Below, in pieces: positions 12,902 to 49,639 of a stretch of 64,000 bases of DNA. Positions within the stretch are counted from its first letter, which is position 1. Every line of letters starts with the position of its first letter. The position numbers and the translations under genes are program-made. The DNA comes from Escherichia coli (GTDB lineage Bacteria; Pseudomonadota; Gammaproteobacteria; Enterobacterales; Enterobacteriaceae), in NCBI GenBank assembly GCA_031701365.1, contig GCA_031701365.1_4118.1; one strand, given 5' to 3'. The notes beneath the pieces were generated by a model that was not told where the DNA came from, made no database searches, and worked only from the letters and a program-made list of their open reading frames with translations.

Positions 12902-13093
12902 ATGTTGATTTATCAAGGTGATAATATTCGTGTTATGCAGCATCCCTACTTACAAATCTTTGATGTGCAGCAGTATATGGAAGGTGATGACCCAAGAACC
13001 TATGGTCGTAAGTATGATTACTTCACTGTAAAGCAGTGTAAAAATATTAACGAAGTACGACAATTAGTTCAAGAACTTCAAAACAAAGGTTGA
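12902..13093 (+). CDS. hypothetical protein
   Basis: start moved to the internal ATG at 12902 of the 12848 ORF to avoid overlap. Confidence 0.45.
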   Translation: MLIYQGDNIRVMQHPYLQIFDVQQYMEGDDPRTYGRKYDYFTVKQCKNINEVRQLVQELQNKG

Positions 13094-13119
13094 CTTCGGT
13101 CAGCCTTTTTTGTTATAAT
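13088..13119 (+). terminator. intrinsic terminator fused to promoter (GGTTGAC-TTCG-GTCAGCC, T run, TATAAT)
   Basis: UUCG tetraloop hairpin plus T6; stem contains TTGACT, with TATAAT 18 nt downstream at 13114-13119. Confidence 0.75.
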
Positions 13120-13147
13120 TCTATTAATAAATTAGAGGATTTTAATT

Positions 13148-13588
13148 ATGTATGTATATCGTTTTGAACTTAAATTTAGTTACATCGAACCTGACTTAAA
13201 ACCAGCCCTAACTGTTGGCCCGTTTGCACGGTATTCAGCCAGATACAGTACTAAAAATGGATTTGACCGTTTGCTCATGACTACACCTTCTCAATTCCAA
13301 CCTGAACCAACTGAGGATGGGATCTATTCAATCAAAAGTGGATGGGTATTTGGCTGTCAAAGTTTGAAAGATTTGTTCAGATTCTTCACTATGGACTTAG
13401 GTAAATTGCATCGTGCTGGGTTTGCTATATCTGTATATGAAGTTCCAGACCACCATGTAGACATTGGTCGTAATCAAGTTCAGTACTATTGCGGTAGTGC
13501 TAAATTAGTTCGTATCATGTCAGTTAAGGAAGCAAAGGATGAGTTCCGACAAAGTAAAAGAGAAACAAATGAGGTAATATATGGATAA
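13148..13588 (+). CDS. hypothetical protein
   Basis: 146-aa ORF, RBS AGAGGA. Confidence 0.65.
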   Translation: MYVYRFELKFSYIEPDLKPALTVGPFARYSARYSTKNGFDRLLMTTPSQFQPEPTEDGIYSIKSGWVFGCQSLKDLFRFFTMDLGKLHRAGFAISVYEVPDHHVDIGRNQVQYYCGSAKLVRIMSVKEAKDEFRQSKRETNEVIYG

Positions 13589-13925
13589 AACTCAAATAGA
13601 ATTAAAGAAATTTGTTTCATTCTATCTTCCTGATGACCCACGTAATTCACAAAAAGATATTGAATATTATAATATCCTATCTAAACAGTTAATGAGAAAG
13701 TTTCAACAGTGTTTAACAATATTCAATACAGATGGAAGACGTAGATACCGAATCGTTTCAATGAATGATGAAAACGCAAATTTCTTTGATTACGATGTGG
13801 TTTTTAGAGCATATAATGATGATCGTATAAAATTAAATTATGATCAAATTATACTTGACCTGAATGTTATATGTGTTATAATCACTCACGTAGCCGAACT
13901 TAATGGTTTTAAAGAATGGTATTGA
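13581..13925 (+). CDS. hypothetical protein
   Basis: 114-aa ORF. Confidence 0.6.
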   Translation: MDKTQIELKKFVSFYLPDDPRNSQKDIEYYNILSKQLMRKFQQCLTIFNTDGRRRYRIVSMNDENANFFDYDVVFRAYNDDRIKLNYDQIILDLNVICVIITHVAELNGFKEWY

Positions 13926-13939
13926 ATAGAGGATAACAT

Positions 13940-14206
13940 ATGAAGCTTAAATTACAATATAATGGATTTACTTTACGTAATGATACTGAATTTATTAATC
14001 GTTCTCCTGGTGCTGAACTGTTTTTACGAGAGATGAACATTCCTTTCATCATTACTACAGTGGGCGACCGTGAAGTTCTACAATACGCAGAGCATCCGAT
14101 CATTGATGTTCCTTGGTACTCTGAGCATATGTACATGGATATGGCACGTCGCTACAACTGTAAGTTCGTAGTTGAAGGTGATAAAATTACAGTCGAATTT
14201 AAATAA
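13940..14206 (+). CDS. hypothetical protein
   Basis: 88-aa ORF, RBS AGAGGA. Confidence 0.6.
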   Translation: MKLKLQYNGFTLRNDTEFINRSPGAELFLREMNIPFIITTVGDREVLQYAEHPIIDVPWYSEHMYMDMARRYNCKFVVEGDKITVEFK

Positions 14207-14217
14207 GGTAAATTAAA

Positions 14218-14511
14218 ATGATCAGTACTTCAGTTAATGAAAGCATCGTCGCTGACGTAGAAATGGTTAAAGAATGTGCAGATGAAACTCTTCGTGATAT
14301 GTACATTAATGATTTAATTACTGAATACGGTAGTCGTGGTGTACACGAATTTATTCGTTTAAGTGGAGAGTTGATGAAAAATCGAATTCGTATGAAGCTT
14401 AACGTACATCCAAAAGCATGGGCATTTACATTAAAATACGCAGAAGATATTGTGAATTTGCGTCGAACTGAAGTATATGAACGTTTGCACAATGGTATGT
14501 TAGATAAATGA
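14218..14511 (+). CDS. hypothetical protein
   Basis: 97-aa ORF, RBS AAGGTAAA. Confidence 0.6.
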   Translation: MISTSVNESIVADVEMVKECADETLRDMYINDLITEYGSRGVHEFIRLSGELMKNRIRMKLNVHPKAWAFTLKYAEDIVNLRRTEVYERLHNGMLDK

Positions 14512-14530
14512 TTGTAAAATAGGAATTCTT

Positions 14531-14557
14531 AAATGAATTCCTTTTTGTTTATAAGGT
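14531..14557 (+). terminator. intrinsic terminator
   Basis: AGGAATTC-TTAAAT-GAATTCCT hairpin followed by T5. Confidence 0.7.
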
Positions 14558-14563
14558 ATAGTA

Positions 14564-14785
14564 ATGAAATATATAGTACTTGTACTGATATTATTCAGTA
14601 CTGTTGTAAGTGCTAAACAAAAAGAATATATTAAATGTATAAATTATGAAGAGAAATATGTTGAAACATATAAAAAAAGTATAATTAAAAACGTTTCGAT
14701 TACTAACAGAGCAACAATCATTGTACTTAAAAATGGGTTAATTATGCTATATAAACCACACGTTAAATGTGAAATTATTAATTGA
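14564..14785 (+). CDS. putative secreted small protein
   Basis: 73 aa with N-terminal signal-like helix. Confidence 0.55.
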   Translation: MKYIVLVLILFSTVVSAKQKEYIKCINYEEKYVETYKKSIIKNVSITNRATIIVLKNGLIMLYKPHVKCEIIN

Positions 14786-14792
14786 GGAAAAT

Positions 14793-15365
14793 ATGAATCG
14801 TAAAGGTCGTTTTAAAGTATCAAAAAAGAACAAAAGTTCTAGGTTTAAACCTATTGTTTTAACAGTTAAATCTAACAAAGAATTAACTGCACTTAGTAAA
14901 AAGATAATTTCATCTAAGATTGAAGTATCATACGTAAATTCATTAAAATATATGAATATAAAACCACTGGACAAACTCATTTCACTTATATTTCAGCGTA
15001 ATGATTTTGAGATATCAGTAGATGATTATAGAGCCTATAATGCTGGTTTCATTAATGTTACTTGTAATAAAAAGCTAACTGAGTTGGAAAACTTGTCATG
15101 TATAGTAAATCTAGATAAAGGTGTAGTGAAATACAATTTTGTACATTTTACTAATATTAATAATGGCATGGGTGTACAATCCAGACCTATAGTACCTACA
15201 TGTGATGTTACTAAATTAGCAAAGCTCAATGATGAAGAATATTTTCAAGAAAGTATTGTGACTGAGCATTTAGATGATATAATAGCTACTTACAAAGAGT
15301 GTATATGGGTTTTGAATGCTATAAAGCCTAAATTGTGTTTAATGAATATTGTTCGTGATTTATGA
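14793..15365 (+). CDS. hypothetical protein
   Basis: start set at ATG 14793 (RBS GAGGAAAA) inside the 14769 ORF. Confidence 0.55.
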   Translation: MNRKGRFKVSKKNKSSRFKPIVLTVKSNKELTALSKKIISSKIEVSYVNSLKYMNIKPLDKLISLIFQRNDFEISVDDYRAYNAGFINVTCNKKLTELENLSCIVNLDKGVVKYNFVHFTNINNGMGVQSRPIVPTCDVTKLAKLNDEEYFQESIVTEHLDDIIATYKECIWVLNAIKPKLCLMNIVRDL

Positions 15366-15378
15366 ATGGGGAATCGTA

Positions 15379-15822
15379 ATGAGTTGGGTAAATGTTAATA
15401 GTATTGAACTTAACGAACAAGATATTTTTGCATTTGTAAATTTAACCAATAATACAGTACTAAAAGGGCGTTTGTTCAGTGCGAGTGATGGATATAAATG
15501 GATCTCTTTGATGGATGATAGTGGTGTGATTTATAATGTAATGCAATTACCCCAATGGGTATATAGTAACACTGCCGACGATGTTCTTGCCGCAGTTATG
15601 CGTGAGTTTGAAAAACTCCCAGGTGGTGATATCAAAAACAAAGTTTTTAATGCAGAACGTAAAAATTATACAGCACAGCAATTGGAATCCCTTGCCATTG
15701 CTGCTTATCAAGCTGCTATTAAGAAGCCAGAGTGCGTTATTCTTAAGTATGTACCAGACTTAAAACTTACGTTGGAAGACATGGATGCATTCATTTTTAC
15801 ATCTGAACTTGATCAGTACTAA
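15379..15822 (+). CDS. hypothetical protein
   Basis: start set at ATG 15379 inside the 15349 ORF. Confidence 0.55.
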   Translation: MSWVNVNSIELNEQDIFAFVNLTNNTVLKGRLFSASDGYKWISLMDDSGVIYNVMQLPQWVYSNTADDVLAAVMREFEKLPGGDIKNKVFNAERKNYTAQQLESLAIAAYQAAIKKPECVILKYVPDLKLTLEDMDAFIFTSELDQY

Positions 15823-15937
15823 TTTAACTTTGGGACAACCATTCTTATTATGATATAATGTTTTATGTCATTCGATATAAATGACAACGGAACTATAAAT
15901 ATTATAGTAAAATTTATCTCTTATAGGAGTTATAAAA

Positions 15938-16321
15938 ATGGTTGATAAATGGAATAAGAAAGATCCATCACATGATGTTGATATTTCTGGTCTAGACAAT
16001 GCACATAAGCACAAGTATCTAGATTCACTAGGTCTTCTAAAACCAGACCAAAGTCTTGCACATGATCGTCCATCCCGTGAAAAAGCATTTAGCCTAGAAT
16101 CACTAGGTCATGAGCTTAATCGTGTGTTTGAGGATCACCCAATCTATGTACGTGATATTATCGAGAAACTTAAAGTAACTCCTAAAGAGCACTTTAAAGC
16201 AACAGTACACTCTGCATTCCGTGCATTGCATGATTCTCTCAAGAAAACTCACAATCTTCGTAAAATTCATGATGAAATCGTGAATGCAATCGAAAGTGAA
16301 AAACATAAGTTCAAGAAGTAA
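15938..16321 (+). CDS. hypothetical protein (shares YLDSLGLL motif with the 16566 gene)
   Basis: 127 aa, RBS TAGGAG. Confidence 0.65.
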   Translation: MVDKWNKKDPSHDVDISGLDNAHKHKYLDSLGLLKPDQSLAHDRPSREKAFSLESLGHELNRVFEDHPIYVRDIIEKLKVTPKEHFKATVHSAFRALHDSLKKTHNLRKIHDEIVNAIESEKHKFKK

Positions 16322-16327
16322 TAAAAA

Positions 16328-16354
16328 GGGGTTGACTAAGGTCAGCCCTTTGTT
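16328..16354 (+). terminator. intrinsic terminator (GGGTTGAC-TAAG-GTCAGCCC)
   Basis: variant of the recurring GTTGAC hairpin with T-rich tail. Confidence 0.65.
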
Positions 16355-16390
16355 GTATCATAACTTCTCAATATAACTGAGGTATCATAT

Positions 16391-16504
16391 ATGCAAGGTT
16401 TGAAATTTGTAGTTGCTGCACTCATCGCCGCAGTACTGGTTGGTGGTGTATTCTATGTAGTGGATCAAAAAGTAAATCCACCTGCACAAGAACAATCTAA
16501 GTAA
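16391..16504 (+). CDS. small membrane peptide (37 aa)
   Basis: not in ORF track; ATG 16391, single hydrophobic helix, bracketed by two terminators. Confidence 0.4.
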   Translation: MQGLKFVVAALIAAVLVGGVFYVVDQKVNPPAQEQSK

Positions 16505-16512
16505 CAAAATAA

Positions 16513-16543
16513 GGTTGACTTCGGTCAGCCTTTTCTTTATACT
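16513..16543 (+). terminator. intrinsic terminator fused to promoter
   Basis: GGTTGAC-TTCG-GTCAGCC plus T run, TATACT 18 nt after TTGACT. Confidence 0.7.
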
Positions 16544-16565
16544 ATAAATATAGACATAGAGAAAA

Positions 16566-17843
16566 ATGAAATCTATGGAGAGAAATCAAATGCCAAGTAA
16601 TTTTACTGATAAAAATGGTGGTAACATGGCTGGTCACTCGGATAAATGGAGTGAACGCAACCGCCGACCAAATAGTTATCAAGCAGGTCAAGGTTCACGT
16701 GGATCACGTAACCAAGGAACTGGTCTAGCTGGTAAAGCAAACGCAGAAGCAGGTGAAGTTAAGAGTACTGAGAACATGACTGAGCTAGAAAAGCTACGTT
16801 ATGTTAATTCATTGGGACTTCTTAATGCTACACAAAAACAACGCCTAGCTGATATGGAACGTGAAGAAAAAGAAAAGTCTGCTCCTGCGAAAGAAGAACC
16901 AAAACAAGAAGCACCAAAGGCGGTTAACCCTGTCAAAGAATTGTCTGATAAGTTAGGTAAGATTTTTGCTAATAAACCACAACTTATCCAAGGTATTGTG
17001 AAAGAATTGCAATCTGTACCTAAAGAAGAATTAAAAGTCAAAGCACAAGCTGTACTTGATGCAATGAGTGGAAATACCAGTACTGAACCAACTGAAGTAT
17101 TCAGTACTATAATGCGTGCACTTGAAGGTACACCACAAGGTGATGTGCCTTCACAAGAGGAAGTAAGTCTTGAAAGCGTACTTAAAACATTTGATAGTAT
17201 TGGTAAAGAAGACCGTGCTAATGCTCAACAAGTTAAGAATGTACTAGCTAAGTTAGAAAACCGTCTGGAAGGTAAAGACGATAAGATTAAATTAGTATCT
17301 GATGCAGTTAACGATGCACTTAAATCTTATGTACAAGGTGAAAAGAGTCGTTTTGTAACTGCAATGGATGCTGCATTCAATACTATGAAAAAGTATGAAG
17401 CTGATCATGGTGAGAAGGTTACACGAGATGGTTATCTGATGCGTGATGATGAAGAAGGTGCAGTAGAACAGAACGATGTTCATTCAGACGAAGAAATTGA
17501 TGACATGGAAGCTGAACTGTCACAAGACCGCCAAATGACTGAAAAATCCCATAACGAACTACAGAAATTAATGCAATGGGTTGCAGATGTTGGTGAAAAA
17601 GCTGGTGCTGATAAGAAGAGTATAAATCGAAATCTTAGTTGGATTAAAGATAAAGTTGGTAACAACGCTCGTAAACTACAAAAAGCGTGGACTGATGTAG
17701 TGAATGGTGCTGTTGACATTGATGTTGAATCCGGTGAGGCATATGATTATGCATTGACTACACTTGATGACTCTTTCCGTGATTACGAAAATGGAAATGT
17801 AACTCCTTGGGAAAAGGACATCATGAGCAAATACGGTAAATGA
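16566..17843 (+). CDS. hypothetical acidic protein with basic Gly/Ser-rich N-terminus
   Basis: 425-aa ORF, largest plus-strand gene; YVNSLGLL motif shared with the 15938 gene. Confidence 0.7.
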   Translation: MKSMERNQMPSNFTDKNGGNMAGHSDKWSERNRRPNSYQAGQGSRGSRNQGTGLAGKANAEAGEVKSTENMTELEKLRYVNSLGLLNATQKQRLADMEREEKEKSAPAKEEPKQEAPKAVNPVKELSDKLGKIFANKPQLIQGIVKELQSVPKEELKVKAQAVLDAMSGNTSTEPTEVFSTIMRALEGTPQGDVPSQEEVSLESVLKTFDSIGKEDRANAQQVKNVLAKLENRLEGKDDKIKLVSDAVNDALKSYVQGEKSRFVTAMDAAFNTMKKYEADHGEKVTRDGYLMRDDEEGAVEQNDVHSDEEIDDMEAELSQDRQMTEKSHNELQKLMQWVADVGEKAGADKKSINRNLSWIKDKVGNNARKLQKAWTDVVNGAVDIDVESGEAYDYALTTLDDSFRDYENGNVTPWEKDIMSKYGK

Positions 17844-17853
17844 TAAAACAAAA

Positions 17854-17878
17854 GGTTGACTTCGGTCAGCCTTTTTTT
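17854..17878 (+). terminator. intrinsic terminator (GGTTGAC-TTCG-GTCAGCC, T7)
   Basis: read directly. Confidence 0.75.
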
Positions 17879-17915
17879 GTAAATACAAAAGAGGAATTAA
17901 GAAGAGGGATTACAA

Positions 17916-18166
17916 TGAAAAAATATATTATATTTGGAATTGTATTATTTTCCAGTACTGCTTATGGTGCAGATTATCATTGCTCCGTAGCAAGGCAGGA
18001 TTTCAGAAATGGGGAGTTCTATACTACCTCATACACAAAAGGAATAATACACGACACCGACAGAACTATTGGATTTAATGCGTTTGACAACAAAGATTCA
18101 TATACTTCAGGTATACTATCTGAGCGTAAGACTGATGTAATGGGAATAGAAAAAGAGTTCCGGTGA
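17916..18166 (+). CDS. putative secreted protein
   Basis: start set at ATG 17916 because the 17840 ORF reads through the terminator; signal peptide ending STAYGA. Confidence 0.55.
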
Positions 18167-18176
18167 TTCCGTAGCA

Positions 18177-18500
18177 ATGTGCAATGACATTGAAAGTACT
18201 AAAACAATTTATTATAATAATGAACGTAACTATCGTTTTCATAATTTAACCACAAATAAAAGTTTACTATTTTACAATTGTAAAGAAGTAATACTCCCAT
18301 CAGACAATAGCTGTACTCCAACTAATCAACCCCCAGCACAATGTAATACTCCCTCTGAACCTGATAAAAATAAAAAAGACAAAGATAAAGATAAAAAAGA
18401 AGACAAAAAACCTTTAAAAGATAAAAAGAAAGATAAAAAACCTAATCCGTTTAAAAATAATAAACCAGCACAACCCGATATGACGTGTAAAATAAAATAA
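18177..18500 (+). CDS. Lys/Asp-rich low-complexity protein
   Basis: 107 aa with KDKDKDKKEDKK repeats. Confidence 0.5.
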   Translation: MCNDIESTKTIYYNNERNYRFHNLTTNKSLLFYNCKEVILPSDNSCTPTNQPPAQCNTPSEPDKNKKDKDKDKKEDKKPLKDKKKDKKPNPFKNNKPAQPDMTCKIK

Positions 18501-18509
18501 GGATATATA

Positions 18510-18929
18510 ATGAAAAAGATTTTTTTAAGTATTATTTTAGTACTTTTTAGTTTTAATGTATATGCAACAGATGCTAAACAGGTTGCAAATACAGTAAAAG
18601 ATGTTATAGTAGATAATGCTCCTACATTAGAGGAAATTGGGGTAAAAACTTGTGATATAGTAATATATAATTTAGTTAATGATGAACGAGTTATGTTGAA
18701 TACGTATGAACAAGTAGTCCCATTGGTTGAATCTGGTGATGCTTTTAGCTTTACATATAAAGTTAAATTAACAGGAGGGGTTGAAGTTAATCTTGACATT
18801 GATACCGCTTCAGTACTAAAAGATAAACTAGGATATGTGTTCAATCGTATTCGTGAAGAAGGTCATCTTAAGTATGTTTATGAAAGTAAAATACTAAAAC
18901 GTGCAATAGTTATAGAAAACTGTAAATGA
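18510..18929 (+). CDS. putative secreted protein
   Basis: 139 aa; signal peptide ending NVYA; RBS AAGGA. Confidence 0.65.
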   Translation: MKKIFLSIILVLFSFNVYATDAKQVANTVKDVIVDNAPTLEEIGVKTCDIVIYNLVNDERVMLNTYEQVVPLVESGDAFSFTYKVKLTGGVEVNLDIDTASVLKDKLGYVFNRIREEGHLKYVYESKILKRAIVIENCK

Positions 18930-18937
18930 TAATAAAA

Positions 18938-18969
18938 GGGTTGACTTCGGTCAGCCTTTTTTGTTATGA
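18938..18969 (+). terminator. intrinsic terminator fused to promoter
   Basis: GGGTTGAC-TTCG-GTCAGCC, T6, then TATGAT 17 nt after TTGACT. Confidence 0.75.
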
Positions 18970-18998
18970 TGTTGATATTAACTACAGAGGATAAAGTA

Positions 18999-19640
18999 AT
19001 GACTAAGCAAGAAATATTCAAAACTTTAATTGACATTTTGCGTCCATCAAAAACTCGTTGTGCGATGGAGTTTGATATTCCTTATGCTGAACGCGTAATC
19101 TTTCCACAAGTTAAAGCTGCTGGACTTACTTTGCTTGGAATGGGGATGTACTCTGTAGTAGTTGAACATAAAAACTATCCTGGGCGTGCATTTAAAGTAA
19201 CCACATCCCGTTGGGATGGTTTTCGTGCTTATGCAAAGTACTGCATTGAAAACGCAGGAACCAAGTTTCTTCCAGTGATCTACAGTGCAAACGAACAAGG
19301 AAACTTTGGATGGTATGAGATGGACAAGTACTATCCTATAATTAAACAAAAAAATAATTATGATGACTTTGTTAGTACTAAAATTGGAGATTTATATTCT
19401 TATGCACATGCTGGTCAGTACGCTACTTCAGTGAATGATATGCGTGGAAATTCTGAAGAGATTGCTATTGCGACGGTCGCTGCTAACATCATGAAAGAGT
19501 TTCACGGGCGTTTTGTACCAGACATTCATTCCAGTAATGTCATGATGGATAAAGATGGCAATGTATTCATTACTGATCCTCTTTCGTGTGATGTACGTAG
19601 AGAAATACCAGTTACTGAAGAAGATCCAGTTTTTTATTGA
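18999..19640 (+). CDS. hypothetical protein, possible kinase-like fold
   Basis: start set at ATG 18999 (RBS AGAGGA); DIHSSNVMMDKDGNVFITDP resembles a kinase catalytic loop and metal-binding segment. Confidence 0.5.
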   Translation: MTKQEIFKTLIDILRPSKTRCAMEFDIPYAERVIFPQVKAAGLTLLGMGMYSVVVEHKNYPGRAFKVTTSRWDGFRAYAKYCIENAGTKFLPVIYSANEQGNFGWYEMDKYYPIIKQKNNYDDFVSTKIGDLYSYAHAGQYATSVNDMRGNSEEIAIATVAANIMKEFHGRFVPDIHSSNVMMDKDGNVFITDPLSCDVRREIPVTEEDPVFY

Positions 19641-19701
19641 CAGAACTGATGTTCTGGTGTATTCTTAATAAACCATAAAAATTGCGGTAAAGGATAAAAT
19701 C

Positions 19702-19983
19702 ATGCGTTCATTTGAAAACTTAATAGGTAAGCATCTTTTATCTGAAATTGATGCAGACGTTAAAGAATTATCCAAATCAAAAAGTTACATTCATTTGGAT
19801 GAACTGTTTATTAAGTACGGTGAGATTGGTTTTAAGTCATTATTTGTTTTTACTATGAAAGTACATAGTTTAAAGTACTTCGATTTGAGTGCTAAAGATG
19901 GTGAACCGAATCTATATTACATGTATTACCTTAAGAACAAAGATGAAGCTAATACATTACTCTCTGAATATATATTGGGGTAA
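19702..19983 (+). CDS. hypothetical protein
   Basis: 93-aa ORF, RBS AAAGGA. Confidence 0.6.
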   Translation: MRSFENLIGKHLLSEIDADVKELSKSKSYIHLDELFIKYGEIGFKSLFVFTMKVHSLKYFDLSAKDGEPNLYYMYYLKNKDEANTLLSEYILG

Positions 19984-19985
19984 AA

Positions 19986-20324
19986 ATGGAACAATATTTT
20001 GAATTAATAAACAAAGTATCATTTTATGTAGTATCTTTGGTTTGGGTGTATTATATGTTTTGCTACATTATTGCATTCTTCCGATACACTACTTTATATG
20101 AACGTATCTACTATGATGCCCCAATTTCATTCTTGATGTTTTGTGCATGTACGTGGGGAATATTAGAAGTACTGATATGTGGGTATAGTACTGATGAATT
20201 AAATCTGGTATCGGTCTTGACTGGGTTTTCATTTGTTGTTATGATAGCTGCCGTTCCAGTATGGTTGTTCTTTGGACTAGTTCATCGCATTGATATATGG
20301 CGTTCTAATATCCCTGAAAAGTAA
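19986..20324 (+). CDS. small membrane protein, paralog family M (A1)
   Basis: 112 aa, 3 hydrophobic helices, C-terminal WRSNIPEK. Confidence 0.65.
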   Translation: MEQYFELINKVSFYVVSLVWVYYMFCYIIAFFRYTTLYERIYYDAPISFLMFCACTWGILEVLICGYSTDELNLVSVLTGFSFVVMIAAVPVWLFFGLVHRIDIWRSNIPEK

Positions 20325-20333
20325 GGATTTGTA

Positions 20334-20675: not shown

Positions 20676-20676
20676 T

Positions 20677-21021
20677 ATGTATAATTTGAACCTAATCTCA
20701 TATATTATAACAACACTGTTTACATTCTATGCCTTTGTTGGTATAATCCTACTGTACTTTAAATTTTATAAAGTGTTTAACCGTTTCTATCCTTCAATGG
20801 AGAATGAGTTTTTCTTTGTGTTGTACGTAGGTTACACATTAATGGCTACATGTTTCACTGTAGCCGATGGTGTCATCGGCATTAAAACTGATTCCCCAAA
20901 TGGTAGTACGCTGGTTGCATTTATTCTTACCGGATTCCTTGCAACTTATATTGCCTTCATTACAACATGGTCAGTGGTTGAATTTCTCTTGCGACTACGA
21001 AAGAATATGCCGAATCGATAG
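20677..21021 (+). CDS. small membrane protein, paralog family M (A3)
   Basis: start set at ATG 20677 just after previous stop; C-terminal LRKNMPNR. Confidence 0.6.
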   Translation: MYNLNLISYIITTLFTFYAFVGIILLYFKFYKVFNRFYPSMENEFFFVLYVGYTLMATCFTVADGVIGIKTDSPNGSTLVAFILTGFLATYIAFITTWSVVEFLLRLRKNMPNR

Positions 21022-21030
21022 GAGACATAT

Positions 21031-21285
21031 ATGTTTGCATTGCGTAACAAAAACACTAAAGAATTATTATGTATTGATACCGTATGGGATTGTGCGGGTT
21101 CAACTACAGTTCTTGAAGAAGGAACTGGATATTGCGTGTTTGTTGTACATGATAGGAATGAACTCGAATTATTACTTGCTGAGTTCAATGCTGGTGGTAA
21201 TCCTAACAGTACTGAATACCCTGAGATTATCAATCCAGCACCTCCAGGTTCATATGAAATCCTACCACTATGGGTGTTGAAATAA
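21031..21285 (+). CDS. hypothetical protein
   Basis: 84-aa ORF, RBS TAGGAGA. Confidence 0.55.
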   Translation: MFALRNKNTKELLCIDTVWDCAGSTTVLEEGTGYCVFVVHDRNELELLLAEFNAGGNPNSTEYPEIINPAPPGSYEILPLWVLK

Positions 21286-21665
21286 TGCGACAAATGTACA
21301 AAGTAACCGAGCTAAACAAGCGTCTGGTTAAACAATCTATGTTTGAGGATAAAGAGTCTTACTATAACTTTAAACGTGCTGTAGAGGCTGCTATCCACAT
21401 CCAGAAGCTTAAAGAACGTGGTTGTATTATTCTGGAAAATGGTTCGGAAGTTGTAACGGATGACTTTAGTGTAGCGTTTGATGTTTCACCTGATGGGACG
21501 CTATCAATGCCCCGCTTAGGAACTGGAAACATGACTGTTTGGGTTGGCTTCACTATGGGGAATGTACCTGGTACTGTGTACGTAGATGATGCGGAATTGA
21601 AAGACAGTTTCAAAAACTTATCTTATCTTGAACCACAATACGCACATGAAATGAATTTATTTTGA
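21285..21665 (+). CDS. hypothetical protein
   Basis: start set at ATG 21285 (TAATG overlap) inside the 21270 ORF. Confidence 0.55.
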   Translation: MRQMYKVTELNKRLVKQSMFEDKESYYNFKRAVEAAIHIQKLKERGCIILENGSEVVTDDFSVAFDVSPDGTLSMPRLGTGNMTVWVGFTMGNVPGTVYVDDAELKDSFKNLSYLEPQYAHEMNLF

Positions 21666-21666
21666 G

Positions 21667-21725
21667 TTGACAAACACATTCAGTACTGTATAATGCTTAT
21701 CAAGGGGGATGAACTTCTCATCCCT
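21667..21725 (+). promoter_or_regulatory. promoter plus 5' stem-loop (PeSL-like)
   Basis: TTGACA, spacer ending CAGTACTG, TATAAT, then hairpin GGGATGAA-CTTC-TCATCCC before the RBS. Confidence 0.6.
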
Positions 21726-21742
21726 ACAATCGAGGAACTACC

Positions 21743-22297
21743 ATGATTACTTTTAAGAAAACTGCTAACCACATCCATGAAATCTACATTAACGGTCATA
21801 AAGCTGGCCTTCTTCGTTTACTCGCCCATCACCCTGATGCTACCGTATCTGATAATGAACCTAAAGATTGGCGTGTCTTTTTCTTTGGAAAGTACAGTGA
21901 TTTTCAAGTATCAAACCTGAAGAACATTCGTTCAGTATGCACGTTAACTGAAATTAAAGAAAAGTTAGCACAAGCATTGAAAACTAATCCAGATGGTGTT
22001 CTTCCACCTGATAACTTTGTAGAGAAAGGTTATGCCTTAGCTCATTTCAAAGATGGTACTATTCAATCTATCAGTACTGAATATGAATATCATTGGACTG
22101 AGTACTTCACTTATGGTTCGAGTAATACATTGATGGATTCACGTAGTAAATTGGAAGAAGTACTGACTCGTATGAATGAACGCGAGCGTCAGTTATATGA
22201 CAAACCAGAAATGTGGAGTTCAACTTACATTGACCGTATTGACTATGTTATTATGACTCCAATCTTTGACACTGCTTACTATGATTCTTTGAAATAA
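21743..22297 (+). CDS. hypothetical protein
   Basis: 184-aa ORF. Confidence 0.65.
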   Translation: MITFKKTANHIHEIYINGHKAGLLRLLAHHPDATVSDNEPKDWRVFFFGKYSDFQVSNLKNIRSVCTLTEIKEKLAQALKTNPDGVLPPDNFVEKGYALAHFKDGTIQSISTEYEYHWTEYFTYGSSNTLMDSRSKLEEVLTRMNERERQLYDKPEMWSSTYIDRIDYVIMTPIFDTAYYDSLK

Positions 22298-22308
22298 GGA
22301 TAACTTAT

Positions 22309-22485
22309 ATGAAACTACGTACTCGTAATCGACTGATGGATGCACTGTACCATGAACAGCTTTCACTGAATGAAGTGAAGCGTCAGTTAATGTACACATA
22401 TCAGTTTCCCGCTCGCATTGCAAAACAACGTGCTAAAGAATTGCTGAAAGAAGCAATCGAGTACTGGGAATCTGATTCGTACTAA
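22309..22485 (+). CDS. hypothetical small protein (58 aa)
   Basis: not in ORF track; RBS AAGGATAA, basic helical sequence. Confidence 0.45.
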   Translation: MKLRTRNRLMDALYHEQLSLNEVKRQLMYTYQFPARIAKQRAKELLKEAIEYWESDSY

Positions 22486-22513
22486 TTGTCACGTTAATTA
22501 AGTGAGGCGATAA

Positions 22514-22765
22514 ATGAAAATTTTATTAGTTCTAATACTACTAATTGTTTTACCATTTACGTTAGTATCCCCTGAACTTGCATGGAATGTGTTTGTGTAC
22601 TTACTATGTACTATGGTGGTAAATGGTATCTTGTTCTTAGTTCTATTCATAAATGGAATAGGACACGGTGGAGGATGGACCAGTACTGCTAATATTGTAC
22701 ATAAAACCACTATGTCTTTATTTGTAGTGTGGAATTTATTCTGGACTTGGTTTGTGTTCTTCTAA
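22514..22765 (+). CDS. small membrane protein
   Basis: 83 aa, hydrophobic helices, RBS GAGG. Confidence 0.6.
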   Translation: MKILLVLILLIVLPFTLVSPELAWNVFVYLLCTMVVNGILFLVLFINGIGHGGGWTSTANIVHKTTMSLFVVWNLFWTWFVFF

Positions 22766-22773
22766 TTAAAAAT

Positions 22774-23145
22774 ATGAATATAGATTTGAAAGGTGCAACA
22801 CGAACTGTTATCCTCATTGGTGAATATGCTATCAAGATTCCAACCTTTAAAAGTTGGAAGCTATTCTTAACAGGGATGATAGCTAACCTCAATGAACGTT
22901 CGTGGATGCAGTACTCCAATCGTAGTGATACTGGTATCTGTCCTACTTTGTGGTCATCATGTACTGGACTAGTAACTGTACAGAAACGTTGTAAGCCAGT
23001 TCAACATAGGGGTTTATTTTGGGTGGAGTTGTGTGCTTTAGCATTGAATTCAGAGTTAAGTACTGACTTCTTTTATTCAGATGCGAAGCCAGAAAACTTT
23101 GGTTATCTGAATGGTAAGTTAGTTAAACTTGATTACGGAGATTAA
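22774..23145 (+). CDS. small kinase-like protein
   Basis: start set at ATG 22774; ILIGEYAIKIP resembles a VAIK lysine motif and DAKPENFGYLNGKLVKLDYGD resembles a catalytic loop plus DFG-like DYG. Confidence 0.45.
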   Translation: MNIDLKGATRTVILIGEYAIKIPTFKSWKLFLTGMIANLNERSWMQYSNRSDTGICPTLWSSCTGLVTVQKRCKPVQHRGLFWVELCALALNSELSTDFFYSDAKPENFGYLNGKLVKLDYGD

Positions 23146-23227
23146 TATGTACGCGTGAAAGTCTAGTAGAAATTGAATACGACTAAGTAAACCAAGATTT
23201 TTTTGAAGTTACACAAAGGAACATAAC

Positions 23228-23422
23228 ATGTTATTAGTATATTCAAAGCGTTTCTGGATTTCATTTATTGTACTATCGCTAATCGGCTTCGGTGTGAGTA
23301 TACTCTTTTCGTGGGATGATTTGGATACATGGTATTATGAAGTTCCGTGGTACATGAAGATGGCTCCTTGTTACGCGGCATTGTTCGTGTCCTTCCTTAT
23401 TGTTGTCTTCAGTGAGGATTAG
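23228..23422 (+). CDS. small membrane protein
   Basis: 64 aa, two hydrophobic helices, RBS AAAGGAA. Confidence 0.55.
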   Translation: MLLVYSKRFWISFIVLSLIGFGVSILFSWDDLDTWYYEVPWYMKMAPCYAALFVSFLIVVFSED

Positions 23423-23489
23423 TTGATGTAGTGGCAGTCAACTCGATGGGTATGAGATTGTTAAGTTGGGAATTATTGAGTAAAAGGTA

Positions 23490-23518
23490 TTGACACCGTT
23501 CCCATTTAACAGTATTAT
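23490..23518 (+). promoter_or_regulatory. sigma70-type promoter (TTGACA-17-TATTAT)
   Basis: read directly; leader TGTACACCAAGTAATGAGGAAT shared with the 23830 promoter. Confidence 0.55.
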
Positions 23519-23555
23519 GTATGTACACCAAGTAATGAGGAATAGGAGTGAAACA

Positions 23556-23816
23556 ATGTTAACACCTGAACAGCAAGAAGCCCAAATCGCTAAACACAGC
23601 CTTGACTTTCCTAACGGTATGACAGTTAAAGAACTGAAAGCACTCATTGCTGATTGGCCTGAAACTAACCAATACGGTGAAGATACTAAAGTACTGATCA
23701 GCACTCAAGATGGTATTGATTGCACAGTGCATTCATCTTGGTGCAGTGAAGTTCGTTTCAATGCAAACGATGAACTGGTATATGATCTTAGTTTGGATGT
23801 AGAAGACCGCAATTAA
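23556..23816 (+). CDS. hypothetical protein
   Basis: start set at ATG 23556 (RBS GGAG); the 23490 ORF begins inside the promoter. Confidence 0.55.
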   Translation: MLTPEQQEAQIAKHSLDFPNGMTVKELKALIADWPETNQYGEDTKVLISTQDGIDCTVHSSWCSEVRFNANDELVYDLSLDVEDRN

Positions 23817-23829
23817 GACAAATAAAAGG

Positions 23830-23858
23830 ATTGACACTAGTTCTATAGTATTGTAACA
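23830..23858 (+). promoter_or_regulatory. sigma70-type promoter (TTGACA-17-TAACAT)
   Basis: read directly. Confidence 0.5.
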
Positions 23859-23887
23859 TGTGTACACCAAATAATGAGGAATCTGAA

Positions 23888-24247
23888 ATGGCATCTTTAA
23901 CTGAAATCACTGAACTGAATCCACTGGCAATTAGTACTGTTCAACGCACAAAGACGTTTTACTTTCGTCCAGTCGATGGTTGGAAGCGTGGTGAGAATGG
24001 CGACTATCGTGTTCTGGAAGATAATCTCGTTGAACGTGTGAATTCAGAACTTAATGTTTATGAAGGTGTTACGGTTGTACGTTCACATTCTCGTTATTTC
24101 GAATACTACATTGAGTCTTCATCGGTAAATGAAAACCGTTCATTTTCTGTTGACAATACTGATGCACTGCGTAATGCAGTATCTATTTTGTGCAATATTG
24201 CAGAAGAAATGGGTTTAACTATCGTAACGATTGGTGAGTTAGCATGA
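23888..24247 (+). CDS. hypothetical protein
   Basis: start set at ATG 23888 (RBS TGAGGAA). Confidence 0.55.
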   Translation: MASLTEITELNPLAISTVQRTKTFYFRPVDGWKRGENGDYRVLEDNLVERVNSELNVYEGVTVVRSHSRYFEYYIESSSVNENRSFSVDNTDALRNAVSILCNIAEEMGLTIVTIGELA

Positions 24248-24441
24248 TTAAAACTTTTATTCTTACAATGGTATTTGGTTCTTATGGTTATGGTGGTGGT
24301 GTGGCGACCGTTGAGTATCCAGTATACGAAGATTGCAAAGCTGCTGCTGAAGTGTTTGTAAAAACAACTAAAGATTTGGCTACCGTTACTGATGCCAAAG
24401 CGTGGTGTACAACTAAAAATACACCAGAAACTAAGAAGTAA
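24244..24441 (+). CDS. hypothetical small protein
   Basis: 65 aa, ATGA overlap. Confidence 0.55.
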   Translation: MIKTFILTMVFGSYGYGGGVATVEYPVYEDCKAAAEVFVKTTKDLATVTDAKAWCTTKNTPETKK

Positions 24442-24450
24442 AAAATAAAG

Positions 24451-24482
24451 GGTTGACAGTAGTCATCCCTTTTTGCTATAAT
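24451..24482 (+). terminator. terminator-promoter cassette (imperfect hairpin variant)
   Basis: AGGGTTGAC-AGTAG-TCATCCCT, T5, then TATAAT 18 nt after TTGACA. Confidence 0.6.
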
Positions 24483-24510
24483 CATTTCATCGAAACGAGA
24501 GGATGAAAAC

Positions 24511-24948
24511 ATGACACGCATTAACTTAGTACACGTTAAAGAACTTGCTGACCAACATCTGATGGCTGAATACCGTGAACTCCCACGTGTGTTTGGTGCT
24601 GTACAAAAACATGTTCAAGCAGGTAAACGAGTACGTGATTTCAAAATTAACAGTACTTATCTGTTAGGTTCAGGTCATGTAACATTCTTCTATAACAAGT
24701 TATTGTACTTACAGAAGCGTCATATTGATATTGTTAACGAATGTTTGCGTCGTGGTATGAAGATTCAAAACATTGAAGTAAACGACATTAGCAGCTTCCC
24801 TGCGGAGTTTTGCCAGGACTATGTGCCATCTGATTCAGAGATTAAAATGTCTCGTGACCGTTTGATTGAGAAGCTCCAGATGAAGCCTACGTGGTATAAG
24901 TTTACTGATGTTGAGTTACCTGAGTACTATACCGAGATGATTAAGTAA
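24511..24948 (+). CDS. denV: pyrimidine-dimer DNA glycosylase / endonuclease V
   Basis: 145 aa. N-terminus [31 protein letters not shown]...GKRVRDFKI...GHVTFFY and C-terminal PTWYK closely match T4 endonuclease V as recalled from memory; catalytic Thr2, Arg22, Glu23, Arg26 are present. Confidence 0.85.
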
Positions 24949-24961
24949 ATAGAGATTAAAA

Positions 24962-25177
24962 ATGATACTTGACACTTCTAGATACAAGTTTTCAAACAAC
25001 CAGAACACAAATAGAACACACACCATGAAATGGTGGTTGAGACATCGTGATAAGGTTTTGAACACACACACCGTATCAGAACTTATCTCGGCAATTATAG
25101 AATTAAGCGATGATGATTGTGTTGAAAACAATATATATAATTTATGGAATGATTATATTAACATAACTAAGGGTTGA
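24962..25177 (+). CDS. hypothetical small protein
   Basis: 71-aa ORF; alternative start at ATG 25025. Confidence 0.4.
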   Translation: MILDTSRYKFSNNQNTNRTHTMKWWLRHRDKVLNTHTVSELISAIIELSDDDCVENNIYNLWNDYINITKG

Positions 25178-25203
25178 CTTCGGTCAGCCCTTTTTGCTAT
25201 AAT
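25171..25203 (+). terminator. terminator-promoter cassette
   Basis: GGGTTGAC-TTCG-GTCAGCCC, T5, TATAAT; about 45 bp near-identical to the 27198 cassette. Confidence 0.75.
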
Positions 25204-25229
25204 TATTTCATCAACACAAGAGGTAACAA

Positions 25230-25466
25230 ATGAAACTATCTTTTATACGATTAGCTGAATTCTTCGGTACTGATATTATTACTTTACAACAAATTGCAGA
25301 CAATACTTCATTAAGTACACAAGAAGTACTTGACTTAGATGTAATTAAGTGTGATAATACTTCCATCGATTTCAAAGAAGGTCTTGTCGAAAAAGATAAG
25401 ATTCAGGCTAAGATTAATGGTGCTGGACGGGTTCAGTACTGGAAAGGAGTTTTGAGTAATGTATAA
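25230..25466 (+). CDS. hypothetical protein
   Basis: 78-aa ORF, RBS AGAGGTAA. Confidence 0.6.
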   Translation: MKLSFIRLAEFFGTDIITLQQIADNTSLSTQEVLDLDVIKCDNTSIDFKEGLVEKDKIQAKINGAGRVQYWKGVLSNV

Positions 25467-26835
25467 CAATGAACATAAAAAATTAATTGAAAATTTTGAT
25501 GGTTATGTATATATAAAGTCAGAAAAACTTAATAACAACTGTTATATACATTATAATCATCCTGAACGTTATCTTCCAGTCAAAATTGAATTATCTGATC
25601 TTGTTAAAAGTGTTAAAAAAAATAAAAATCAACTAGCTCCACTACGAACAAAAGAAGAAATAGTTGAAATTGTTAGAAATAAATTTATTAATAAAAAACA
25701 ATATTCAATAAAAAAAATTGATTATAATAAAAGAAGTTCTGAGTGTATTGTTCATTATGATGACAATTCTGGAATTACATATACAGTTTCATTACAAACT
25801 TTAATATATAAAAATTGGGAACCAGAGACAGCTAAGCCAAGAAAGACATTGAATATGCATATTGAATATGCAAAGAAAAAATTACATGAATTAGGTCATG
25901 AATTTATAAAATTTAATAGTGATAAAATTGATAAAAAAACATATGTTATTTACAAACATAGCTCAAGAATATTACCATGTGAAATACAATATTACGAATT
26001 GCGTAGATGTGATGATAAATTAATACCTCATTTGACTATAGATGAAATAAAAGCAAAAGTTGAGCATGAAGCATCAATACAAAATGTAATAATAACAGAT
26101 ATTATAGAATGTATAAATTTATCATATTCTAATATAAAATATAAATTACCTGAAAATAATGATATAGGTGGTGAAGTACAATATATAAGTATGATTAAGG
26201 ATGGATTTTCGTTTAGACATAAAAATAATATCAAAACTGATAATTTTTATTATAATTATGGTGTGGAGTTTTGTAAAAAAAATGGTTTGGTATTCATAAA
26301 AGTGATTGAGTATAATAAAAAAATGACAAAATATCATTTTAAAATGCTAAATGGTGAAGATTGGAAACCAACTTATAGCTCTTTGGCACATAGTGGTTCT
26401 TTATGTAAAGGTGGATACCAAAATAATAATGCTGCCCGTGTATATGTGAATAATGACCATTGTGGTGAAGCTGACAATGCTGGGAAAACCATGCAAAAAA
26501 AATTCAATAATAGATTAACGGTTAGAAATAATTCATTTTATAAAAATTATGGTATTAAAAATTTTTGGAAAAATGAATTATTGATTTTATTTAATAATAA
26601 AAATGGTGGTAAATTAGCTACTGAATTGGAAAAAATAATTCATACAACTGCATTATGTGGAAGACCACATGGAAGAACCGGTTATTATGAAAAAGGCGAT
26701 GGGTGCACAGAAACATTCAACAACATCCATCGACCTAAAGTTAACGAAGCCATTAAAAAGTTCTTAGCAGAACATGAAGGTGAGTACATTATCGAACGTG
26801 ATATCAATGGTATTTTTGGTGAAGTAATTTTGTAA
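25459..26835 (+). CDS. hypothetical Asn/Lys-rich protein with internal repeats
   Basis: 458-aa ORF; three related segments of type hYxHxxxxxLPxxIxxxxL. Confidence 0.65.
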   Translation: MYNNEHKKLIENFDGYVYIKSEKLNNNCYIHYNHPERYLPVKIELSDLVKSVKKNKNQLAPLRTKEEIVEIVRNKFINKKQYSIKKIDYNKRSSECIVHYDDNSGITYTVSLQTLIYKNWEPETAKPRKTLNMHIEYAKKKLHELGHEFIKFNSDKIDKKTYVIYKHSSRILPCEIQYYELRRCDDKLIPHLTIDEIKAKVEHEASIQNVIITDIIECINLSYSNIKYKLPENNDIGGEVQYISMIKDGFSFRHKNNIKTDNFYYNYGVEFCKKNGLVFIKVIEYNKKMTKYHFKMLNGEDWKPTYSSLAHSGSLCKGGYQNNNAARVYVNNDHCGEADNAGKTMQKKFNNRLTVRNNSFYKNYGIKNFWKNELLILFNNKNGGKLATELEKIIHTTALCGRPHGRTGYYEKGDGCTETFNNIHRPKVNEAIKKFLAEHEGEYIIERDINGIFGEVIL

Positions 26836-26855
26836 AACAAAAGAGGTTAATTAAA

Positions 26856-27182
26856 ATGAAAAAGTTAATGTTAGTTATGTTAATGTGTTTATCAACAACA
26901 GTGAATGCAAAAACTGAAGCATCAACAACATGTAAATCCACAAAAACTGACACTATCTACAATTTGTATTTGGATGTAACAACACAAACAGCAAAAATAG
27001 ATGGAAAGAAGTTTATGTTTGAAAGTCAAGAAGTATTTAAAGATGGAAGTGGTTCGTATACTATTTTTTCAAATGATAAATTGAATCAAAAATTAAAAGT
27101 TTTTGTTATTAAACCTAATAAGATAAAATATATTATTACCTATAATGGTAAAAATATTGATATGGGTAATTGTGTGTATTAA
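26856..27182 (+). CDS. putative secreted protein
   Basis: 108 aa; signal peptide ending TVNA; RBS AGAGG. Confidence 0.65.
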   Translation: MKKLMLVMLMCLSTTVNAKTEASTTCKSTKTDTIYNLYLDVTTQTAKIDGKKFMFESQEVFKDGSGSYTIFSNDKLNQKLKVFVIKPNKIKYIITYNGKNIDMGNCVY

Positions 27183-27197
27183 ATATGTTTATAAAAA

Positions 27198-27230
27198 GGG
27201 TTGACTTCGGTCAGCCCTTTTTGCTATAAT
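27198..27230 (+). terminator. terminator-promoter cassette
   Basis: GGGTTGAC-TTCG-GTCAGCCC, T5, TATAAT. Confidence 0.75.
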
Positions 27231-27258
27231 TATTTCATCAACTGATGAGGATAACGAA

Positions 27259-28029: not shown

Positions 28030-28096
28030 TTACATATGTTGACAGTACTACCATCGTGTAGTACTATAATGGGAGTATAATCTGCGGAGAAGAAAT

Positions 28097-49616: not shown

Positions 49617-49639
49617 ACACTTTAAGAGAGATTAATACG

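Follow-up and report, generated by a model that had tools for sequence, protein, structure and literature searches.

The best-described relatives of the element considered here are the PeSLs of T4-like phages, which Arbiol et al. 2010 (PMC2839356) described in RB49 and phi1 as repeated intergenic units in which a stem-loop is combined with a strong sigma-70 promoter and an upstream region rich in A and T. In lacZ reporters the RB49/phi1 PeSLs showed both termination and promoter activity, and they were found to flank indels, for which excision as mini-circles was proposed (PMC2839356). PeSLs were later extended to T4/PST and to nt-1/KVP40 (Schizotequatrovirus) by Comeau, Arbiol & Krisch 2014, with an nt-1/KVP40 consensus of A3-4G3-loop-C3T3-4 and TTGYVH-N17-TAWWAT (PMC4122927). 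A preprint by Fletcher et al. (bioRxiv 10.64898/2026.08.19.745784) reported a frequent coupling of promoters to terminators in bacteria, with the -35 element in the terminator stem and the T-tract before the -10 element, and that the coupled promoter raises termination efficiency while the stem and T-tract add to promoter strength. The element analyzed here is a hairpin-containing cassette that is present ten times (cassettes 1 to 10) in a stretch of 64,000 nucleotides, referred to as the window, from contig GCA_031701365.1_4118.1 of the Escherichia coli assembly GCA_031701365.1. Its sequence and its similarity to the above systems make it likely that the cassettes are composite transcription signals of the PeSL or promoter-coupled-terminator type, located in an early region transcribed by the host RNA polymerase.

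By its sequence, the window is DNA of an Asteriusvirus jumbo coliphage. Positions 13000-20000 are 98.8% identical to Escherichia phage vB_EcoM_phAPEC6 and JP4, and 96-98.7% identical to SP27, G17, PBECO4 and 121Q, which belong to the genus Asteriusvirus of jumbo myoviruses (about 350 kb). No copy of the cassette was found in 5,426 complete E. coli genomes, which rules out a host-derived (REP-like) repeat.

The core of the cassette, TTGACTTCGGTCA, occurs exactly at positions 13090, 16515, 17856, 18941, 25174, 27201 and 58056, and with one mismatch at 62099, all on the plus strand. A looser pattern, TTGAC-N3-6-GTCA, adds the sites at 16332 (loop UAAG) and 24453 (loop AGUA, with one U.U mismatch) and returns exactly ten plus-strand sites and no minus-strand site in the window. 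All ten copies listed in the initial annotation were recovered on the plus strand, and chance or low complexity was ruled out as the origin of the repeats, since 0.04 matches to TTGACTTCGGTCA are expected from shuffled sequences as compared to 8-10 observed copies.

The ten copies have a common layout, which consists of an A-tract (3-6 nt in all ten), a stem in which GG(G)TTGAC pairs with GTCAGCC(C), a loop of four bases, and a run of 3-7 T directly after the stem, again in all ten. The UUCG tetraloop, closed by a C-G pair, had been ascribed to the hairpin in general and was found in seven of the ten copies, but the remaining loops are UCCG, UAAG and AGUA. RNA folding of the individual copies gave energies between -12.3 and -19.5 kcal/mol (z-scores relative to shuffled sequences, -3.6 to -6.7). 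The hairpins are 9-14 bp in size with the -35 element as their 5' arm, as in PeSLs, in which a stable stem-loop overlaps the promoter. They also have the G+C-rich stem, short loop and immediate U-run of intrinsic terminators, and a terminator-finding program reported sites at 13085, 16511, 25169, 58049 and 62092. An identical stretch of 45 nt (GGGTTGAC...CATCAAC) is shared by the copies at 25171 and 27198, in agreement with the identity of about 45 bp noted for them earlier. The second T of TTGAC is paired with G in the stem, which results in a G.U pair in the RNA and a C.A mismatch on the opposite strand. Four antisense copies folded at -7.7 to -13.5 kcal/mol, that is, 3.7 to 7.7 weaker than the sense copies. 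There were no Rfam matches at gathering score and no tRNAs detected by ARAGORN in the whole window, which rules out a tRNA, tmRNA or known RNA family as the identity of the cassette.

The -35 element is composed of the five stem bases and the first loop base and reads TTGACT, except at 24453, where the hexamer is TTGACA. A TATAAT element 17-18 nt downstream, often with an extended -10 TG, had also been proposed for all copies, and a match of at least five of six positions at a spacer of 17-18 was found in nine of the ten (exact TATAAT in four; TG in seven of the ten), but not in the copy at 17854. These nine copies have the sigma-70-like pair of hexamers about 17 bp apart that is typical of PeSLs. 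Other terminators in the window have unrelated stems (GCCAGTAC, AGCCCAC and GGCGGGAA), which indicates that TTGAC is not forced by the requirement for a hairpin. Eight of the ten copies are placed between an upstream stop codon, located 6-15 nt before the hairpin or within it (0-15 nt overall), and an ATG preceded by a Shine-Dalgarno (SD) sequence; the distance from the end of the -10 element to this ATG is 26-31 nt in seven of the eight copies and 46 nt in the eighth. Two open reading frames (ORFs), which end at 13093 and 25177, have their TGA stop codon within the cassette's TTGAC (13091-13093 and 25175-25177), so that the stop codon, the terminator stem and the -35 element occupy the same bases.

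Cassette 1 (13080-13119; all ten cassettes are on the plus strand) has the hairpin GGTTGAC-UUCG-GTCAGCC at 13088-13105 (-14.1 kcal/mol), a run of six T, and TG with TATAAT at 13114-19. The TGA of its upstream ORF is within TTGAC, the ATG of a 146-aa ORF follows at 13148, and the hairpin is an ARNold terminator in the G17 annotation. Cassette 2 (16321-16361), GGGGTTGAC-UAAG-GTCAGCCC at -17.6 kcal/mol, has a -35 TTGACT, a spacer of 18 and a -10 TATCAT, is followed by a 37-aa ORF from 16391, and is a terminator in the G17 annotation as well. Cassette 3 (16506-16543), GGTTGAC-UUCG-GTCAGCC at -12.4 kcal/mol, has a spacer of 17 and a -10 TATACT and precedes a 417-aa gene from 16590 with the PHROG label 'virion structural protein'. 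Cassette 4 (17846-17885; -14.3 kcal/mol) has the hairpin with a run of seven T and weak -10 candidates (TGTAAA/TAAATA) before an ATG at 17915, and to judge from its sequence it is probably a terminator alone or a promoter of very low strength. Cassette 5 (18930-18970), GGGTTGAC-UUCG-GTCAGCC at -15.4 kcal/mol, with a spacer of 18 and TG with TATGAT, is upstream of a gene for a T7 gp0.7-like protein kinase (ATG 18999).

Cassette 6 (24443-24482), GGGTTGAC-AGUA-GTCATCCC with the U.U mismatch (-12.3 kcal/mol), has the -35 TTGACA, a spacer of 18, and TG with TATAAT, and is followed by denV (ATG 24511). Cassette 7 (25165-25215), GGGTTGAC-UUCG-GTCAGCCC at -15.7 kcal/mol, has a run of five T, TG with TATAAT, and a conserved start region, ATTTCATCAAC, and the TGA of its upstream ORF is inside TTGAC. 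The 5' edges of both cassettes coincide with homology breakpoints. Cassette 8 (27191-27242; -19.5 kcal/mol) contains the 45 nt identical to cassette 7, precedes a 256-aa P-loop/AAA-like gene (ATG 27259), and is located where homology with all relatives is restored, at 27194. In cassette 9 (58044-58084), UGGTTGAC-UUCG-GTCAGCCA at -15.9 kcal/mol, the outer pair is now U-A, whereas cassette 10 (62087-62127), GGGATTGAC-UCCG-GTCAGTCCC at -19.5 kcal/mol, has an added A-U pair. Both have a spacer of 17 and TG with TATTAT, and both are followed by the same noncoding CCCACAGGGTGC element instead of an ORF.

Among the described systems, the nt-1/KVP40 PeSLs show the closest similarity, as BLAST with a 53-nt cassette matches KVP40 itself. 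Over 47 nt, cassette 7 and the KVP40 copy (21142-21188) show 81% identity. The KVP40 copy reads AAAAGGGTTGACTGCGGTCAGCCCTTT...TATTAT (full sequence AAAAGGGTTGACTGCGGTCAGCCCTTTcgcgTATTATagcTTCATCAACAC); it shares the stem GGGTTGAC/GTCAGCCC with its G.U wobble, and has a comparable start region, TTCATCAACAC. The published nt-1/KVP40 elements are sited between genes in plastic regions, and the cassettes described here likewise form a repeated family in a plastic region, with ten copies in the window and neighbouring genes that are mostly hypothetical. In contrast to nt-1/KVP40, the phage is here a Rak2-like jumbo Asteriusvirus outside Straboviridae, the copies are fewer and more uniform (ten in the window; seven exact copies in one whole related genome) and occupy one early region, three of the ten are at rearrangement junctions, and the cassette is known from sequence alone. 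The RB49/phi1 PeSLs are similar in that a promoter with a stem-loop is placed between a stop codon and the next SD and ATG, in many copies before ORFans, and in that one subclass has its stem-loop over the -35 element. They differ in having polyG/polyC stems at five positions relative to the promoter and about 50 copies per genome, and they have no sequence similarity to the present cassette.

The bacterial promoter-coupled terminators also have the -35 element in the stem DNA, a T-tract abutting the -10 element, and a location between tandem genes. In that family, which is defined from mapped RNA ends, the transcript ends at most 35 bp, and most often about 10 bp, before the next start on the same strand, and here the end of the U-run is about 10-13 nt before the predicted start. 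Whereas the bacterial elements are found on chromosomes with diverse stems and do not form a repeat family, one near-identical sequence is reused in a phage here and is defined from its sequence. Since the layout predicted from the sequence matches the descriptions of PeSLs and coupled terminators, the mechanism put forward in the initial annotation is a known one. What seems to be new is its presence in Asteriusvirus as a PeSL or promoter-coupled terminator, which is unrecognised in the annotations and papers checked. The same hairpins are annotated in G17, GAP32 and CBB, by three independent teams, as ARNold or Rho-independent terminators only. CBB supplementary Table S8 lists GGGTTGACTTCGGTCAGCCCTTTTTGCTATAC, at -16.8 kcal/mol, as a terminator, and four hairpins of that table were absent from the passages of the CBB promoter Table S5 that were covered. 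Promoters or terminators are not discussed in the RaK2, phAPEC6, Sharanji and fEgEco12 papers, and no transcriptome study of an Asteriusvirus was found in the literature searched.

The association of the hairpin with a -10 element was analyzed independently in contexts picked by the 18-mer hairpin GGTTGACTTCGGTCAGCC alone. A scan of IMG/VR returned 56 matches, representing 53 unique contexts, most of them in contigs of 345-378 kb and the others in contigs of 108-250 kb. A match to TATAAT of at least five of six positions was found at a spacer of 17-18 in 40 of the 53 viral contexts, as compared to 0-6 of 53, typically about 1, at each of the other offsets from -50 to +44. In 185,579 bacterial genomes GGTTGACTTCGGTCAGCC was found at 50 sites (about 17 expected by chance), 22 of which had a T-run and the appearance of a plain terminator (Acinetobacter, Exiguobacterium, Vibrio, Bacteroidota), and a TATAAT-like -10 element was present at two of these 22 sites and at two of the 50 overall. 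Among copies with a T-run, a -10 element was present in 37 of 45 viral versus 2 of 22 bacterial copies (Fisher p = 8.7e-9, a value that overstates independence because the viral copies are partly orthologous). The offset profile and the bacterial control rule out the -10 element as an automatic outcome of a T-run in A/T-rich DNA. Coupling to a -10 element is plainly a property of the phage elements and not of the hairpin as such, and the phage copies with a -10 element and the bacterial copies of the same hairpin without one constitute a clean natural control for promoter coupling.

In the proposed mechanism, the RNA hairpin GG(G)UUGAC-UUCG-GUCAGCC(C) with its U-run would end the preceding transcript within the U-run, and the same 40 bp, as DNA, would function as a strong sigma-70 promoter. 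The upstream A-tract would serve as an UP-like element, and the 3' arm and T-tract would form the 17-18 bp spacer, followed by TGn and TATAAT. Transcription would be started by the host sigma-70 holoenzyme early in infection, about 7 nt past the -10 element and about 10-13 nt past the termination point, and an SD-containing leader of some 20 nt would follow. The G.U wobble may preserve the hairpin in the sense RNA while weakening it in the antisense RNA, as the energy difference given above suggests, and the G opposite T would prevent a mirror-image TTGAC on the other strand. Promoter-bound polymerase may also reinforce termination. Being near-identical and intergenic, the copies would in addition act as portable homology for the insertion, loss and permutation of modules, here mainly of homing-endonuclease cassettes.

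Several observations weigh against this reading. The statement that the same 30-45 bp ends one gene and starts the next is supported by the sequence as a prediction of terminator and promoter, but the copy at 17854 (core at 17856) has no convincing -10 element, its candidates being just TGTAAA/TAAATA, and cassettes 9 and 10 (58053 and 62095) precede noncoding DNA without an SD sequence and start codon. Mapping of 5' or 3' ends was not found in the searchable literature for any Asteriusvirus, and both activities therefore rest on sequence rules and analogy. The phage has an RpoD-like sigma factor of its own (3659-4624), which might also use the cassette promoters. As to the role in recombination, five cassettes (13-19 kb) are in fully syntenic DNA, which makes recombination at most an occasional side effect, and the indels at cassettes 6-8 could be explained by homing-endonuclease mobility alone. 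The partial orthology of the viral copies in the -10 statistics, as indicated above, is a further reservation.

It is possible, though improbable, that the cassette is a terminator only. The stem's TTGAC and the hexamer rich in A and T would then be incidental and start no transcription, and the downstream genes would be expressed via read-through or other promoters. This would agree with the published annotations found, with cassette 4, which has no good -10 element, and with some 20 bacterial sites at which the same 18-mer forms a plain terminator-like hairpin that lacks a -10 element. It does not account for a -10 element at exactly 17-18 nt in nine of the ten window copies and in 40 of 53 viral as opposed to two of 50 bacterial contexts, for the extended -10 TG in seven of the ten, or for the fixed distance from the -10 element to the SD sequence and ATG, and the unrelated stems of the other terminators in the window also argue against it. 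We consider it still less probable that the cassette binds a dimeric regulator at TTGAC-N4-GTCAG, or that the hairpin is a processing or 3'-stabilising signal, even though the phage sigma factor and the gp0.7-like kinase could alter promoter use and a section heading of the Fletcher et al. preprint suggests that palindromes encoding terminator stems may double as binding sites of transcription factors. The DNA repeat is imperfect, with a T opposite G that still pairs as G.U in RNA; the loop variants are mostly stable RNA tetraloops (UUCG, UACG, UCCG and UGCG), and changes in the outer stem are compensatory in RNA (UGG/CCA, the added A-U pair). Furthermore, the element is found in phages of Gram-negative and Gram-positive hosts without an obvious common regulator. 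The imperfect DNA repeat, the tetraloops, the compensation at the RNA level and the host range together suggest that RNA structure is under selection, along with the universal sigma-70/sigma-A hexamers.

The repeats might alternatively be a by-product of mobile endonuclease genes that carry their own promoter/terminator unit, which is also an unlikely explanation, ranking between the above two. An endonuclease-type gene is present in the variable module of every relative that has one (phrog_681 in the window, JP4, and the UvrC-like gene of phAPEC6), an HNH gene is directly upstream of the denV cassette in JP4, the absence of AGTACT sites from the window's module, where about 7.5 are expected, suggests recent foreign origin, and in Aeromonas phage 65 a cassette precedes an endonuclease gene. 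Against this, the five cassettes at 13088-18938 are in fully syntenic DNA, beside conserved early genes of an ordinary kind and away from any endonuclease gene, and the pairing of a cassette with denV is conserved across genera. Mobility of endonuclease genes explains changes in copy number and not the promoter/terminator anatomy, and it therefore complements, more than it replaces, the interpretation of the cassettes as composite terminator-promoter signals. The free-standing homing-endonuclease cassettes of T4-like phages (PMC4122927) have in common with these loci an intergenic insertion, their own expression signals, conserved genes as neighbours and a presence that varies among close relatives. 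They differ in that the repeat described here is apparently not an endonuclease target site and that most of the present cassettes have no endonuclease gene nearby.

The 23-27 kb portion of the window, where these modules are located, has been rearranged relative to other Asteriusvirus genomes. Positions 1-23154 and 27194-31852 are collinear with phAPEC6, JP4, G17 and SP27 at 96-98% identity, and the stretch between them is not. Homology resumes at 24440-24447, 25152-25169 and 27194, the respective 5' edges of cassettes 6, 7 and 8; the breakpoints are within about 10-20 nt of the 5' edges of the copies at 24451, 25171 and 27198, whereas all relatives are syntenic at the five copies between 13 and 19 kb. 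No phage record covered 80% of positions 24000-28500, and in a search with this segment the match started at one of the first two of these positions in 44 of 50 among the matches listed. A variable module of 78-aa, 458-aa and 108-aa ORFs is located between cassettes 7 and 8 (25230-27182, plus strand). The 78-aa ORF is shared with relatives, and the 458-aa and 108-aa ORFs are specific to the window. The 458-aa ORF is assigned to phrog_681 'endonuclease' (PHROGs), the sole PHROG label among the window-specific proteins of the module, for which a Pfam search returned no match.

At the corresponding site, phAPEC6 has a 79-aa ORF and a 628-aa UvrC-like gene, and G17 and JP4 have a 78-aa ORF and a 372-aa gene ('homing endonuclease' in JP4, hypothetical in G17). 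SP27 and UE-S1 have no module, and a single cassette is present where the window has two around 2 kb. In JP4 the gene inserted directly upstream of the denV cassette encodes an HNH endonuclease, and a comparison with SP27 shows that the denV block has been permuted. No AGTACT-free stretch of the window is longer than the window-specific module (no sites versus the roughly 7.5 expected), which suggests recent foreign acquisition. The overall arrangement has the topology known from PeSLs, but homing-endonuclease mobility accounts for the same indels. The coincidence of breakpoints with cassettes was observed directly, and recombination at the cassettes is rated as a real yet secondary property. 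Two similar promoters lacking a hairpin, at 23478-23520 and 23819-23860 (aaaaggtaTTGACAc...gtacaccaa.taatgaggaat), lie on either side of a window-specific ORF (23490-23816), which phAPEC6, JP4, G17 and SP27 do not have, and represent a second case of repeated promoters bounding an indel.

The search with the 53-nt cassette matched 177 phage records. Asteriusvirus genomes have 5-9 cassette places each, and further matches were found in Alcyoneusvirus (K64-1, phiKp_21) and Mimasvirus (GAP32, XbC2), in CBB and Serratia phage BF, in the Erwinia pEa_SNUABM phages, Yersinia phage fHe-Yen9-04, and T4-like Vibrio and Aeromonas phages, as well as in Certrevirus CR3 and the Gram-positive Herelleviridae phage A9. 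At every locus fetched, the match was intergenic, a few bases past one coding sequence, with the next one starting 20-35 nt further on. Asteriusvirus, Alcyoneusvirus K64-1 and CBB all have a nearly unchanged cassette before denV. Of the exact copies in 121Q, whose genome is complete, seven of seven are in the region homologous to the window, which indicates that the family marks one early region and not the whole genome. In UE-S1 (L009), a truncated copy, aggaTTGACTTCGGTCAcataaagg, is located just past denV at 3590-3602 without the outer stem, T-run and -10 element, and resembles the 'degraded half-PeSLs' of Comeau et al. 2014.

A near-identical cassette of 30-35 nt, AAGGGTTGACTTCGGTCAGCCCTTTT-TG-TAT(A/T)AT including the G.U wobble, is shared by Asteriusvirus, Alcyoneusvirus and Mimasvirus, and also by Straboviridae, Vequintavirinae and Herelleviridae A9. 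One might speculate that it is a horizontally travelling regulatory module, and not a product of convergence, that provides shared homology for gene swaps between unrelated virulent phages, a proposal to which we give a rather low probability. If it is true, such swaps might proceed via PeSL mini-circles or endonuclease-assisted exchange. Convergence and horizontal spread are indistinguishable because nearly every position of the 30-35 nt is functionally constrained, the constrained parts being the A-tract, GC clamp, -35 element, tetraloop, complementary arm, T-run, TG and -10 element.

The bifunctional interpretation, as supported by the sequence, has consequences for annotation, in that these hairpins of jumbo phages should be entered as a terminator plus an early promoter, and the predicted operon map of the early region would become one of many units of one to four genes. 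It would widen the PeSL concept, which comes from T4-like phages, to include jumbo phages of the Rak2-like group, and the cassette would mark places of entry and exit of endonuclease and ORFan modules. For engineering, the cassette may offer an insulator/promoter part that is compact, at about 40 bp, and has been reused by evolution across many phage families.

The plus strand of positions 1-31.6 kb is a succession of small genes, the majority without known function, and is the early, host-takeover section of the phage genome. Genes with an assignable product on the plus strand of this section include those for the RpoD-like sigma factor at 3659-4624 (Pfam regions 2, 3 and 4), the T7 gp0.7-like protein kinase at 18999-19640 (by annotation) and denV at 24511-24948 (Pfam Pyr_excise).

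The noncoding element found after cassettes 9 and 10, CUA(A/G)CCCAYAGGGUGC-N4-5-GUAUCU, is located at 58111, 59796 and 62149, and is found 25-30 nt past strong promoters, including those of cassettes 9 and 10. It is also present in several jumbo phages, including 121Q (L028, 4 copies), and in L019, L035, L042, L055 and L017, and in some contigs it forms convergent pairs that result in long inverted repeats. A structured small RNA was rejected as the identity of this CCCAYAGGGTGC element, as RNAalifold returned an invariant 4-bp hairpin with zero covariation and Rfam gave no match.

Stem-loops are associated with three other promoters in the window, at 19637-19665 (CAGAAC-TGAT-GTTCTG), 28039-28067 (GTACTAC-N6-GTAGTAC) and 2385-2420 (GGAGTAC-AAT-GTGCTCC). 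These stem-loops are in the spacer or over the -10 element and recall other PeSL subclasses. They were excluded as members of the cassette family, their folding being weak or non-significant (z-scores of -2.6, -0.7 and -3.6, respectively). About 25 near-identical sigma-70-like promoters, aaaaaGTACTTG(A/C)(C/A)A-N16-(AGTACTG)TATAATgttttACATC, are located at 48200-63000 on the plus strand (for example at 49557, 50334, 51013, 52375, 53264, 57266, 58189 and 62228), and also at 702, 2064, 7007, 7355 and 11317. Most of these have a hairpin in the 5' leader, GGGGAGAAATGGTTCTCCCC, at about +8, followed by an SD sequence, and a TTGCAA variant occurs 12-13 times.

The palindrome AGTACT is present at 252 sites in the window (e.g. 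82, 468 and 978), an 11.6-fold excess over the 21.8 expected (standard deviation 4.4), for which no explanation was found in the literature searched. The sites, which have a median spacing of 196 bp, are in both coding and noncoding DNA; about 44% of them read CAGTACTG. Other palindromic hexamers in the window are enriched at most 2.3-fold, and several G+C-rich ones are absent. A stretch of about 2 kb at 47620-49580 has no plus-strand ORF of at least 60 aa and just two short minus-strand ones. Both of its strands have several promoter-like sites, and long hairpins that contain AGTACT are also present, such as that at 48394-48427.

A second terminator-plus-promoter-like cassette is present on the minus strand at 32459-43800, between tandem RCC1-repeat paralogues. 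This cassette of about 72 nt is intergenic after 35109, 37471, 38839, 40059 and 32786, and consists of the hairpin GCCAGTAC-N4-GTACTGGC, a T-run and GTATTAAATATAGTATAATGAATAAAGGAGGG, followed by an ATG; its hairpins are annotated as terminators in G17.

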